Origin: Saprospira grandis str. Lewin
GTDB lineage: Bacteria; Bacteroidota; Bacteroidia; Chitinophagales; Saprospiraceae
NCBI RefSeq assembly: GCF_000250635.1
Contig: NC_016940.1
Coordinates: forward strand, 1,224,995 to 1,288,994
Direction: 5' to 3'
Length of the DNA stretch: 64,000 bases
The notes under the pieces are model-generated. The model made no database searches. It had not been told where the DNA came from and worked only from the letters and a program-made list of their open reading frames with translations. The position numbers and the translations under genes are program-made. Of the stretch, positions 35,802 to 39,236 are shown piece after piece. The first letter of the stretch is position 1. Each line of letters begins with the position of its first letter.

Positions 35802-38800
35802 ATGATGATGCGTTATTTCCTATTCTTGCTCCTGCTTTGGAGTAGTGGGGCGCTTTTGGCCCAAACAGAAGATATTGAATTGGTGGTGAGCCAAGGCCAC
35901 CACAGTAATGTCCGAAGCCTTGCCTTTTCGGAAGATGGGCGTTTTTTGGCCACGGCTGGCGATGACCGCAGCCTGCGCATTTGGTCGATGCGGCTACAGC
36001 AAGAATATAAGGTCCTTTGGGGACATAAGGCAGCTATTACGGATGTTGGCTTTTCTAAGGATGGGCAGTTTTTGGTCTCTATCGGCAGTCGGTTGCTCTG
36101 TATTTGGTCCATACCTGAAGGCAAACTTTTGCATCAGCTGGAGGTAGATGCTTTGGGCAAACGCCTACAATTTTCGGAGACTAAGGCAGGTCATGTTATG
36201 GTCCGACTGCCCGAGGGCATAGCCTGGGTAGATTTAAAAACGGGGGCCATAGACTACAGCCCAAAGCCCTTTATGCGCAATTGGAGCAACTGGATTTTGG
36301 GACAAAAAACAGCCCGTGTGATTGTCCCTGAACGGCCCGATAGCATTTGGGCCTATAGCCTAGCGGGCAAAAGAGAACAACTATTTGTAGGTAAGGGGAG
36401 CTATTATAAGCTGCTGCTTTCGCCCAATGAGGATTATCTGGCGGCCTATTCGGGCAGCCGTATGGCCGTAGATGTTTGGGATTATCAGAGCGGGAAATTT
36501 ATAGGCAGTATTGAGGGGCTTAGCCCAGTACAAGACTTTTGTTTTGATATATCGGGCAAGCGGCTCTGGATTATGGACCTACATGCCGAATGCAAGGTCT
36601 ATAGCTGTCCTCAGCTCCAAGAAGAACTAGTGGTCAATAAGAAAAGTTGGGACAAGGAAGGCCTTGGCCAAGGCGATTTGGTACAGGTAAATATTGGTCA
36701 GCAAATTCGCCCTAGCCCCAATGGGCAGTTTATGGGGCTGGCCATTACTCGCACCGAAGTGAACCGCAAGACGAGCAAGATGAATGACCTCAGAGGGGTG
36801 CAGCTAGTCGATGCCCAAACGGGCAAAGAAAGGGGCCTGTTTAAGGGGCATTTTAAGTGGATTACCCAGCTAGGCATCTCGCCCAAAGGCGATAAACTCC
36901 TCTCCATTAACATGGGCAAAACCCGAGGGCTGCGCTCTTGGGCCATCAAAAAAGGAGAAATTGAACGCTATATCCATAGCTCCCAAAGCCTTAGCCAAAG
37001 CCAAGATAAAAAACAACTGGCCCTACTCGAGTTTCATGAAAAAGCTCAGCCAGAACTAACGGTCTATCAGCTCCCTAGTTTTAGAAAGCTAGCCAAGAAG
37101 AAGCTCGACAATTGCAGCGCCTTTGCCCTAAGTGGCGATGGCCAAAAAATAGCGGCCCTACAAGTAGATGTCAATCTCAAAAACCCCTTAAACAACCGCT
37201 TTTATTACTCTATATGGAAGCTGCCCAACTACAAACTAGAACAAGAAATTGAGATCGAATCTAAGGAATCTGCCCTGCCCATATTTAAAAGTCTATTGCT
37301 TGATTCTGCTGGCGATTACCTTCTTGCCGCCGCCCAAAACCAAGCCTACAGCCTAGAGCTAAGCAGCCAAAAACGCATCCGATTTGCCCTGCCTAGCTCG
37401 GCTACTTATTGGCGAATGCTCTGCCTGCATCCGCAACAGCCCGCCCTACTCTTTGCAGTCACTGAGGTGGTCTATAATCAGGAGAAAAAAAGAGTGGAGG
37501 AGCTCAGCAAGCTGCTGCTCTACAACTATAAAACAGGCGAACTCATCGAGGAAGTAAACAGCCCCAAAGAGGGGGTTATCCAAAGCGCAACCTTTAGCCC
37601 AGATGGCCAATACCTGCTCACGGGACAAACGGCCTATCAGGCCGTTATCGACTTTGATGTGCTGCTTTGGGATTGGCCCCAAAAACAACTGCTCTGCCAA
37701 TTTAAAGGGCATAATGGCGGCATCAATGACCTGGCCTTTGACCCCCTAGGCAAAAAGGCCTATAGCTGCTCAGAAGATGGATTGATTAAGGCCTGGGATA
37801 TAGAAAAATGTGCCCTAGCGGCCTCTTTTATTGGCTATAATGAATTGGATTACCTTATTATCTCGCCCGAAAATTACTATAAAACTAGCCGAAGCAATAC
37901 CGCTGGCCTTGGCTTTCGATATGCCGGCGACCTCTATACCTACGATCAATTTGACCTCCGATTTAACCGCCCAGATAAGGTCCTCGCCCCCTTTAGCGAT
38001 GCCCCTCGCAAACTAAATATTTATACCAAGGCCTGGAAAAAAAGAGTGCGGCGACTCGGCTTTACCGAGGAACAACTAGAGCAAGAGCTAGAGCTGCCCC
38101 AACTTCAAATTGTCAATCAATTGCAGCTCCCCATTTTTGTAGAAGATAGCCTCATCCATTTCCAAATTACCGCCTTTGACCAGCAACAGGCCCTAAAAAA
38201 ACTCCGCATCTTTGTCAATGGCGTGCCCTACCCCAATGCAGAAGGCATCGAGCTAAACAACAGCCCTGGCGATAGCCTGCACCAAAAACTAAGTATTCCA
38301 CTAGGCCAAGGCCCCAATAAAATTCAACTGTCGGTGGTCAATGCCGCAGGCCTAGAAAGTGCCAAACAGAGCTTTCAACTGGCCTACCAACCCAAAGAGA
38401 AACAAACTAGTCAACTCTACTTTTTGGGCCTTGGGGTCAGTGAGTTTAAAGATAGTAGCCGCAACCTAAAGTACCCCAAAAAAGATGCCCATGACCTGGC
38501 CCAAACCTTAGCCGAAGCCCAAGAAAAAGGACAGTTCCACCAACTTTTACTCGACCCTAATATGCCCATAGAACAACTGCAAAAAAGCGCTAGGGCCTTC
38601 ATGCAGCAGGCCAAAATCAATGACCAAATTGTCTTTTATATCTCTTCACATGGCCTGCTAGACGATAGCCTGAACTACTACCTAGCCCTGCCCAATAGCC
38701 AATTTGATCAGCCCCAAAATGGAAGCTGGGCCTATGATGATATGGAGCAATTACTGGATGGGCTGCCCTGCCGCAACCGCCTGCTCCTGCTCGATGCCTG

Positions 38801-39236
38801 CCATTCTGGGGAAGTGGATAAGGAGGTAGAAACCGAGAAGAAATCGGTCAGTAGCTTTGCCCAAAACATACTCAAAAGAAGCAAGTCGGGCAGTACCCTG
38901 ATCCGGCCCAAAACAGGACTCAACAACTCTTTTGCCTATATGAAGGCCCTTTTTTCGGACCTAGAACAGCAGCGGGGAGTCACGGTTATTTCTGCCGCTG
39001 GCGGCTTCGAACTGGCCTATGAATCGGATGAATGGGGCAACGGCCTCTTTACCTACGCCCTTTTGGAGGGCATCAAAAGCAAGAAAGCTGACCTCAATAA
39101 TGATGGCCAAATTCCTATCCTCGAGCTGCGAGACTTCCTCAGCCTCAGGGTGCTAGAGCTCAGCCAGGGCCAACAGCAGCCCACCGCCCGCCAATCTAAT
39201 GTTTTCAATAACTTTATCCTTTACCGTTATGATTAG
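35802..39236 (+). CDS. Exported WD40-repeat protein fused to a C-terminal caspase-like (peptidase C14) domain
   Basis: Signal peptide 'MMMRYFLFLLLLWSSGALLAQ'. WD40 units ('HHSNVRSLAFSEDGRFLATAGDDRSLRIWSM', 'GHKAAITDVGFSKDGQFLVS', 'GHNGGINDLAFDPLGKKAYSCSEDGLIKAWDI'). C-terminal ~280 aa carry the caspase His/Cys dyad contexts 'VFYISSHGLLDD' and 'LLLLDACHSGE'. Confidence 0.8.
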   Translation: MMMRYFLFLLLLWSSGALLAQTEDIELVVSQGHHSNVRSLAFSEDGRFLATAGDDRSLRIWSMRLQQEYKVLWGHKAAITDVGFSKDGQFLVSIGSRLLCIWSIPEGKLLHQLEVDALGKRLQFSETKAGHVMVRLPEGIAWVDLKTGAIDYSPKPFMRNWSNWILGQKTARVIVPERPDSIWAYSLAGKREQLFVGKGSYYKLLLSPNEDYLAAYSGSRMAVDVWDYQSGKFIGSIEGLSPVQDFCFDISGKRLWIMDLHAECKVYSCPQLQEELVVNKKSWDKEGLGQGDLVQVNIGQQIRPSPNGQFMGLAITRTEVNRKTSKMNDLRGVQLVDAQTGKERGLFKGHFKWITQLGISPKGDKLLSINMGKTRGLRSWAIKKGEIERYIHSSQSLSQSQDKKQLALLEFHEKAQPELTVYQLPSFRKLAKKKLDNCSAFALSGDGQKIAALQVDVNLKNPLNNRFYYSIWKLPNYKLEQEIEIESKESALPIFKSLLLDSAGDYLLAAAQNQAYSLELSSQKRIRFALPSSATYWRMLCLHPQQPALLFAVTEVVYNQEKKRVEELSKLLLYNYKTGELIEEVNSPKEGVIQSATFSPDGQYLLTGQTAYQAVIDFDVLLWDWPQKQLLCQFKGHNGGINDLAFDPLGKKAYSCSEDGLIKAWDIEKCALAASFIGYNELDYLIISPENYYKTSRSNTAGLGFRYAGDLYTYDQFDLRFNRPDKVLAPFSDAPRKLNIYTKAWKKRVRRLGFTEEQLEQELELPQLQIVNQLQLPIFVEDSLIHFQITAFDQQQALKKLRIFVNGVPYPNAEGIELNNSPGDSLHQKLSIPLGQGPNKIQLSVVNAAGLESAKQSFQLAYQPKEKQTSQLYFLGLGVSEFKDSSRNLKYPKKDAHDLAQTLAEAQEKGQFHQLLLDPNMPIEQLQKSARAFMQQAKINDQIVFYISSHGLLDDSLNYYLALPNSQFDQPQNGSWAYDDMEQLLDGLPCRNRLLLLDACHSGEVDKEVETEKKSVSSFAQNILKRSKSGSTLIRPKTGLNNSFAYMKALFSDLEQQRGVTVISAAGGFELAYESDEWGNGLFTYALLEGIKSKKADLNNDGQIPILELRDFLSLRVLELSQGQQQPTARQSNVFNNFILYRYD

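Follow-up and report, generated by a model that had tools for sequence, protein, structure and literature searches.

A gene of Saprospira grandis str. Lewin raises the question of whether a caspase-type protease mounted on WD40 repeats can be destined for a place outside the cytoplasm, and what it would do there. The gene lies in a 64,000-nt stretch of DNA (the window; assembly GCF_000250635.1, contig NC_016940.1, positions 1,224,995 to 1,288,994 of the forward strand), to which all positions below refer. Its open reading frame, called at 35802-39236 (+) with a product of 1144 amino acids in a preliminary description of this DNA and found to be so, encodes a protein that is named here the WD40-caspase. 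That description considered its export exceptional. However, the protein is ordinary and has been annotated before; it belongs to a very large, mainly Bacteroidota family for which export is the rule, and this export is of little significance for the window alone. The reading that we favor, with moderate confidence, is that of a Sec-exported, soluble periplasmic endopeptidase of metacaspase type, processed by signal peptidase I (SPI), probably specific for Arg/Lys and possibly regulated by a loop and by Ca2+, with propellers that would recruit the substrates.

An exact-sequence look-up identified the product as RefSeq entry WP_245538644.1, a “caspase family protein” of Saprospira grandis. The older annotation of str. 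Lewin, on the same contig of 4,345,237 bp, contains the same protein as a “WD-40 repeat protein” (AFC23975.1/SGRA_1240). S. grandis DSM 2844 has an ortholog that is 93% identical and is found in an unchanged gene order. Between these two strains, the ratio of nonsynonymous to synonymous substitutions (dN/dS) is 0.106 overall and 0.085-0.15 for the individual domains. Purifying selection in every domain indicates that the gene is real and constrained. Diversifying selection of the propellers was looked for between the same strains and none was detected, the purifying selection being uniform. Only one copy of the gene is present within the window.

The C-terminal 445 amino acids were searched against 1.84 billion cluster representatives (50% identity), resulting in 22,230 matches at E ≤ 1e-3, 7,944 at E ≤ 1e-10 and 3,277 at E ≤ 1e-30. 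In the best 150 matches, the whole module is covered and forms the very C-terminal end of proteins that mostly have 1,050-1,250 amino acids; all 150 have this architecture in common. When one genome per species was scanned, at least 588 relatives were found. The best 80 of these belong almost all to the Bacteroidota (Saprospiraceae, Aureispira, Microscillaceae, Cyclobacteriaceae, Cytophagales, Flavobacteriales, Crocinitomicaceae, Bacteroidales, Marinilabiliales, Chitinophaga, Leeuwenhoekiella, Reichenbachiella and Labilibacter), the others being a few metagenome-assembled genomes of Myxococcales, Isosphaeraceae and Pyrinomonadaceae. More distant versions with a signal peptide or a lipoprotein signal can also be found in other phyla (P0016, P0020, P0034, P0075, P0104).

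The architecture itself has been described before. In a survey from 2012, WD40 was the commonest partner domain of prokaryotic metacaspases, and many of the predicted N-terminal transmembrane (TM) helices were probably signal peptides (PMC3501461). In a paper from 2014, a cluster of large WD40 metacaspases in Psychroflexus torquis was flagged with signal peptides and regarded as putatively secreted (PMC3914696). Annotation, described architecture and family size together make this protein a known type, so that neither its export nor its domain combination is exceptional. The premise that such fusions are normally cytoplasmic applies to the caspase-NACHT-WD40 and gasdermin-associated architectures, not to this family.

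The N-terminus has the layout of a signal peptide, as had been proposed. A basic n-region (MMMR) precedes a hydrophobic core (YFLFLLLLW), which sits inside an uncharged stretch of 18 residues and is followed by SSGALLA/QTED, with a small residue at position -1 and Gln at +1. This is in agreement with the Q-rule for SPI substrates of Bacteroidetes, in which Gln follows the cleavage site (PMC5837995, PMC10653852). Gln21 is conserved in at least 90% of 69 orthologs, and the same Ala/Gln context is present in a cargo protein of the type IX secretion system (T9SS) encoded in the window. Export was called from a hydropathy and charge heuristic combined with family conservation, not from a dedicated signal-peptide predictor. 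By the same heuristic, N-termini resembling a signal peptide occur in 118 of 128 family representatives (those with a Met start and more than 900 amino acids), versus 17 of 98 other WD40 proteins lacking a C-terminal caspase domain. The combination of a small residue and Gln directly after the h-region is found in 111 of the 128.

A lipobox Cys at +1 is absent, and the first 99 residues contain no Cys at all, which speaks against processing as a lipoprotein by signal peptidase II. No T9SS C-terminal sorting domain (Por_Secre_tail/TIGR04183) was matched at E ≤ 10 in residues 866-1144, nor was one found with NCBIfam. The sorting domain is present in three other proteins of the window, which served as positive controls and indicate that Saprospira uses the T9SS route. 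In addition, the caspase domain reaches residue ~1142 of 1144, ending ~2-6 residues before the C-terminus and leaving no room for such a domain. With neither signal present, the periplasm is the default location, and the WD40-caspase is most probably a soluble periplasmic protein, as predicted from its sequence, exported by Sec and cleaved by SPI.

The domain assignments of the preliminary description were confirmed with Pfam: WD40 (PF00400) scores 111 bits against a cut-off of 27, and Peptidase_C14 (PF00656) scores 50.4 bits for the full protein and 55.1 bits for the domain alone against a cut-off of 21.4 (residues 877-1138). An AlphaFold2 (AF2) model was built on an alignment of the 69 full-length orthologs. 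The full-length model has a predicted local distance difference test (pLDDT) value of 86.8 and a predicted template modeling (pTM) score of 0.84; for the C-terminal model, these are 84.7 and 0.87. The full-length model consists of a helix (residues 2-20), 55 β-strands (26-687), a hairpin with helices (693-760), a β-sandwich (767-862) and an α/β domain (872-1142). In a Foldseek search against the PDB, the first ~700 residues matched tandem double propellers, namely 2ymu (E 3e-32), Aip1 (1nr0), Utp21, Pwp2 and Apaf-1, and the best of these matches were aligned across ~660-730 columns. The strands and the double-propeller matches correspond to ~14 blades. The WD40 region was therefore recognized correctly before, but its “at least 7 units” are two propellers.

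Behind the propellers, the chain continues into a linker and an Ig-like β-sandwich. No model for either of them (37872-38396, residues 691-865) exists in the 2025 copy of Pfam-A, and both occur in thousands of 50%-identity clusters. In the 69 orthologs, the linker shows a mean identity of 39%, with invariant D718, P724 and R748 and near-invariant Q716, F717, N722, R723 and D725; its motif is followed by an amphipathic helix (A..KR...LGF). In structure comparison, the β-sandwich resembles Fn3-like, PKD and Big domains (~9-10.5). As modeled, the C-terminal domain adopts the caspase-hemoglobinase fold of family C14, its structure-comparison values being 19.8 for the MALT1 paracaspase, 19.4 for AtMC9, 19.2 for AtMC4, 19.1 for GSU0716 and 18.8 for caspase-9.

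The catalytic dyad is intact. The motifs YISSHG (residues 946-951) and LLLDACHSGE (995-1004) provide His950 and Cys1000, the two members of the dyad, which are invariant in alignments of 16, 69 and 20 sequences. Across the 69 orthologs, D895, D941, H950, G951, D998, C1000, G1003 and E1004 do not vary; H950, G951, D998, C1000 and G1003 are likewise invariant in the alignment of 16 homologs. The DACHSG motif was identified in 121 of 144 family representatives, a few others having DACNSG or lacking the motif. Searched as a single sequence against those of the PDB, the caspase region gave nothing meaningful, and a profile of the whole C-terminal part was swamped by WD40 columns. A caspase-only profile was therefore built, which found AtMC4 (E 1.7e-4), GSU0716 and Yca1, all marginal matches with E-values of 1e-4 to 1e-2. 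In this alignment, D895 falls on the metacaspase motif C.ND, H950 on SGHG and D998-A-C1000 on DSCHSG. We take the positions of D895 and D998 to belong to the S1 pocket, as in published metacaspase structures (PMC5756287) and in that of TbMCA2. All characterized C14 members other than caspases prefer a basic P1 residue, owing to an acidic pocket (PMC5756287). By this analogy, as judged from sequence, the WD40-caspase is probably specific for Arg/Lys at P1.

Two further elements of the catalytic domain might regulate it. The loop after the catalytic Cys has AF2 pLDDT values below 50 for residues 1002-1020 and 1027-1036. Its ends are conserved in orthologs (EVDK at the start, (R/K)PK(A/T)GL at the end), with a median of six Lys/Arg. 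In this respect it is similar to the linker cut by type II metacaspases upon activation by Ca2+ (PMC5756287). Alignment and model suggest that autoprocessing in this loop probably gates the activity. Closer to the C-terminus, a loop fits the EF-hand consensus D-x-N-x-D-G-x-I-x-x-x-E, and its D1097 and E1108 are invariant in the 69 orthologs. The EF-hand_6 model of Pfam scores 18.3 bits here, below its cut-off of 25, and EF-hand_1 scores 28.1 bits in the homolog P0238, above its cut-off of 25.4. Modulation by Ca2+ through this loop is possible, as far as alignment and model indicate.

Table 1. Coordinates of the WD40-caspase, its parts and other features of the window.
Feature	Position	Strand	Remarks
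Whole gene, WD40-caspase (predicted to be exported)	35802-39236	+	ATG start, 1144 aa; WP_245538644.1 / SGRA_1240
Signal peptide, residues 1-20 (MMMRYFLFLLLLWSSGALLA)	35802-35861	+	Predicted from hydropathy/charge layout; SPI cleavage predicted before Gln21 (Bacteroidetes Q-rule)
Tandem WD40 β-propellers, residues ~25-690	35874-37871	+	~14 blades; Pfam, AF2 strands, Foldseek; boundary between propellers ~residue 340, approximate
Conserved linker, residues 691-765	37872-38096	+	β-hairpin and helices; motif YY..S......FR.....Y.(F/Y)(E/D)QFDL.FNRPD.VL
Ig-like β-sandwich, residues 766-865	38097-38396	+	
Peptidase C14 (metacaspase-like) catalytic domain, residues 866-1144	38397-39233	+	
Asp895 codon, predicted acidic residue of S1 pocket	38484-38486	+	Invariant in 69 orthologs; aligns with Asp of metacaspase C.ND (AtMC4, Yca1)
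Catalytic His950 codon (YISSHG)	38649-38651	+	Invariant; aligns with metacaspase SGHG
Asp998-Ala-Cys1000 (DACHSG), catalytic Cys and second predicted S1 Asp	38793-38801	+	Invariant; aligns with metacaspase DSCHSG
Disordered K/R-rich loop after catalytic Cys, residues 1004-1038 (EVDK...KRSKSGSTLIRPKTG)	38811-38915	+	Candidate autoprocessing linker; putative cleavage
EF-hand-like loop D1097-L-N-N-D-G-Q-I-P-I-L-E1108	39090-39125	+	Between helices 1082-1093 and 1106-1120 in model
S9 prolyl-oligopeptidase-family lipoprotein	33522-35456	-	N-terminus ends LLGSSC; N-terminal propeller-like region
Downstream esterase/S9-like α/β-hydrolase	39199-40389	+	Lipobox ..LLPAC (..LFLLGLLLLLVLGLLPAC/Q), ~95 residues into open frame
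DDE transposase	28252-29724	-	~6 kb upstream in Lewin; none in DSM 2844 there, between T9SS-cargo gene and PIG-L
Proteins with T9SS sorting domain	135-3551, 7975-13632, 26170-28071		Positive controls
GC-rich repeat copies flanking the WD40-caspase	35560-35790, 39237-39440		Upstream (inverted) and downstream
Further GC-rich repeat copies (examples)	3605-3715, 6857-6997, 13764-13904, 15435-15583, 22457-22590		
Further GC-rich repeat copies (examples)	33277-33394, 41778-41903, 47711-47832, 56596-56711, 62460-62651		

Conservation is distributed unevenly along the protein. Among orthologs, the module formed by linker, Ig-like domain and caspase domain is 39-41% identical, versus 18-20% for the propellers, which are the least conserved part. 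Two metagenome contigs (Ga0163155_10001315 and Ga0163149_10000094; L003/L004, 7001-17107) carry a tandem array of at least three adjacent WD40-caspase paralogs. Each has a hydrophobic, signal-like N-terminus (in one case with a start that is truncated and was called at a GTG) and carries a DACHSG domain at the C-terminus, and further WD40 genes are located at both ends of the array. The C-terminal modules of the L004 paralogs are 72-77% identical and their propellers 24-38%, which points to gene conversion affecting the protease module or, alternatively, to propellers that diversify rapidly. The asymmetry, seen in orthologs and paralogs, supports a division into a constant catalytic and a variable recognition module.

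The proposed course of events is as follows. The N-terminal signal peptide would direct export by Sec and would be cleaved between Ala20 and Gln21, as its sequence and its conservation in the family suggest. The protein would then be retained in the periplasm, given that it has no lipobox Cys, T9SS C-terminal domain or membrane segment. The mature protein of ~127 kDa is predicted, with high confidence of the model, to fold into two WD40 propellers, a helical linker, the Ig-like domain and the caspase-fold domain. By homology with metacaspases and orthocaspases, the His950/Cys1000 dyad with its acidic S1 pocket (Asp895, Asp998) would cut after Arg or Lys. Gating would probably be exerted by autoprocessing in the K/R-rich loop and possibly by Ca2+ at the EF-hand-like loop. 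The divergent propellers may constitute a platform for recognition of a substrate or ligand, the linker, Ig-like and caspase domains being the constant catalytic part. In the most economical role, the WD40-caspase would process or turn over proteins or peptides of the envelope or the periplasm. With this subfamily, proteolysis of the caspase type would have a place in the cell envelope and not in cell-death pathways of the cytoplasm.

Several points weigh against this proposal. P1 specificity, autoprocessing and Ca2+ binding are derived from an alignment and a predicted model, and the EF-hand match lies below its threshold. Localization is based on heuristics and on conservation in the family, and retention in the periplasm is an argument from absences: release in vesicles or attachment to a partner may take place instead. 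Fast divergence is common for WD40 repeats in general, weakening the asymmetry as an argument for a role in recognition. The context of the Saprospira gene points to no substrate or partner, and the genes that recur beside its relatives are absent from the window. Finally, although thousands of 50%-identity clusters belong to the family and its linker has no Pfam model, neither functional work nor biochemistry on SGRA_1240 or any other member was found in the literature searched.

Conserved partner genes were sought by clustering the neighbors in 80 genomic loci. No universal partner emerged, only partners shared by subsets of 5-9 loci. One recurrent neighborhood, found in 5-8 loci depending on the partner, consists of a secreted BamB/PQQ-like propeller, the WD40-caspase, a secreted protein of 260-280 amino acids lacking a Pfam match, and a CHASE2 membrane protein. 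Both downstream partners are present in all eight loci of this type (L028, L042, L043, L047, L061, L066, L076 and L077, from Cyclobacteriaceae, Reichenbachiella, Bacteroides sp. 214 and others). The BamB-like gene is present in four of them (L042, L061, L066, L077) and in L057. The CHASE2 partner has ~390 amino acids and no output domain, and the arrangement echoes the CHASE2/WD40-metacaspase island of Psychroflexus torquis (PMC3914696). Other subsets comprise a secreted protein of 253 amino acids without a Pfam match, directly upstream in eight Bacteroidales loci, and TPR-SpoIIE phosphatases, close to the gene in nine loci. In the five closest relatives outside Saprospira, a secreted M48-like/TPR protein adjoins the gene.

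These neighborhoods bear on another explanation, in which the protein belongs to a periplasmic surveillance or signaling system. The fast-diverging double propellers would be receptors for foreign or damage-derived ligands (phage, toxin, damaged envelope protein), and the constant module would be the effector. It would cleave an envelope target or sensor, or a CHASE2 or TPR-phosphatase partner, leading to cell suicide or to a transmembrane signal. If true, this would be a periplasmic counterpart of cytoplasmic NLR-like caspase systems and an extracytoplasmic analogue of caspase activation of the NLR/apoptosome type. The contrast between protease module and propellers, strongest in the L004 array, is in its favor, and so are the ~10% of loci linked to a CHASE2 membrane protein with two unannotated secreted proteins or to TPR-SpoIIE phosphatases, together with the cluster described in Psychroflexus (PMC3914696). 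However, the Saprospira gene stands in single copy without these partners, and a propeller dN/dS of ~0.1 between Saprospira strains gives no sign of an arms race. PADLOC returned a weak generic caspase match alone (27-31 bits), the 80 loci share no partner, and rapid divergence is general among WD40 repeats. This explanation is accordingly considered unlikely, although its probability is not negligible.

A similarly low probability is given to an uncleaved signal anchor, by which the protein would be tethered to the inner membrane and face the periplasm, its chemistry being otherwise unchanged. Residues 2-20 form an isolated helix in the AF2 model, and in the survey by Asplund-Samuelsson et al. 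(PMC3501461), N-terminal TM helices and signal peptides could not be told apart. The uncharged stretch is, on the other hand, just 18 residues long including the polar SSG, and it ends in Ala-Gln, an SPI context with a Gln21 as conserved as stated above. Cleavage and a soluble periplasmic protein are thus preferred.

Saprospira grandis is a gliding predator, and the WD40-caspase could be imagined as an extracellular weapon, a released or surface-displayed protease that degrades proteins of prey or competitors on its WD40 scaffold. Its predicted export fits this idea, as do the exported hydrolases next to it, the S9 peptidase lipoprotein and the esterase with its lipobox. Against it stands the lack of a T9SS sorting domain, the mark of the standard outer-membrane route in the phylum and of three proteins in the window, in a protein whose caspase domain runs practically to the C-terminus. 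Members of the family occur in Bacteroidales, Flavobacteriales, Cytophagales, Chitinophaga and Marinilabiliales, with many lineages not named as predators, and the hydrolase neighbors are conserved within Saprospira only. The prey or competitor targeting put forward in the preliminary description is therefore rather improbable, and somewhat more so than the anchor.

A cytoplasmic caspase of a conflict or programmed-cell-death system, with a mis-called start or a hydrophobic N-terminus that arose by chance, is very unlikely. WD40-caspase fusions are known beside bacterial gasdermins, and a weak similarity to the PADLOC caspase model and to the NCBIfam family of EACC1-associated caspases (NF047832, caspase_w_EACC1) was detected. 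The latter match, with 76.9 bits, is far below the cut-off of 140 and covers only positions 7-145 of the 211 in the profile. No NACHT/STAND nucleoside triphosphatase (NTPase) domain was found among the 25 best of 41 Pfam matches of the full protein, and the AF2 model has no α/β NTPase-like domain between signal helix and linker; neither gasdermin nor any other partner accompanies the gene. The N-terminus is hydrophobic in 92% of the 128 representatives, and no downstream start would keep the first blade. Equally little is to be said for a catalytically dead scaffold that only binds partners: pseudo-orthocaspases exist in bacteria (PMC6426788) and a few family representatives have an altered or missing motif, but none of the 69 orthologs deviates at His950, Cys1000 or the two predicted S1 Asp residues, and the catalytic domain is the best-conserved part, under purifying selection.

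In the window, the gene is located between the divergent S9 peptidase lipoprotein and the α/β-hydrolase, in an order identical to that of DSM 2844. Its neighbors are these two, a 169-amino-acid protein without Pfam match and YebC. The esterase lipoprotein gene reported downstream does contain a lipobox, but its start codon is uncertain, since the sole start in the frame (39199) overlaps the end of the caspase gene and reads through a GC-rich repeat. No ATG, GTG or TTG is present just upstream of the lipoprotein signal; the 5' end of the esterase gene may have acquired the repeat by insertion. Further upstream (30747-33275, +), an 842-amino-acid bacterial homolog of the eukaryotic major vault protein was observed (MVP_shoulder with 109 bits, and Vault_3); it lacks an obvious signal peptide, and its conservation extends to DSM 2844.

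The GC-rich repeat directly after the WD40-caspase gene is present as reported, though it is not specific to this gene: ~19 copies of ~130-200 nt are dispersed over the 64 kb, one of them inverted upstream of the gene. They occur in both orientations, mostly between genes, with 72-86% identity and a GC content of ~60% versus 47.6% for the window. Several other mechanically called reading frames also run through copies. The repeat has a conserved core and variable hairpins. RNAalifold on nine copies gave 23 pairs, nine of them with compensatory double changes, and no Rfam family matched anywhere in the window. From its sequence, it looks like a structured element of Saprospira similar to repetitive extragenic palindromes or miniature inverted-repeat transposable elements. 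A mobile cassette delimited by the flanking inverted repeats was considered and rejected in view of the dispersal of the copies and the same gene order in DSM 2844.

Compared with known systems, the WD40-caspase combines familiar parts in a different arrangement. Characterized orthocaspases (C14, e.g., MaOC1 of Microcystis) and metacaspases (AtMC4, AtMC9, Yca1, TbMCA2) are cytoplasmic or intracellular, whereas the protein described here is predicted to be exported and has its catalytic domain at the C-terminus, preceded by two propellers, a linker specific to the family and an Ig-like domain. Its putative Ca2+ site is an EF-hand-like loop, in contrast to the p20 or 280-loop sites of metacaspases. 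GSU0716 of Geobacter sulfurreducens (PDB 3bij), an uncharacterized C14 structure, is a single domain of 285 amino acids without propellers, linker or Ig domain. The gingipains of Porphyromonas belong to a different family of clan CD (C25) and reach the surface or the medium with a T9SS C-terminal domain, which the WD40-caspase does not have.

The cytoplasmic conflict caspases (gasdermin-associated C14/CHAT proteins with WD40, TPR, LRR or NACHT, and the caspase-NACHT-WD40 STAND proteins) share with it the C14 domain and a WD40 array as the presumed recognition module, and some are among the weaker WD40 matches (e.g., P0022, P0038). Unlike them, the WD40-caspase has no NTPase, no adjacent gasdermin, the opposite domain order with the protease at the C-terminus, and a conserved signal peptide. 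In Psychroflexus torquis, several paralogous WD40 metacaspases lie together with CHASE2 proteins in one island (genomic island 15); in the Saprospira window, by contrast, the gene is present only once and is not accompanied by partners of this kind. The Psychroflexus report (PMC3914696) and the 2012 survey (PMC3501461) are both at the level of annotation; by description, the Psychroflexus proteins resemble the WD40-caspase, being from the same phylum, large and flagged with signal peptides.

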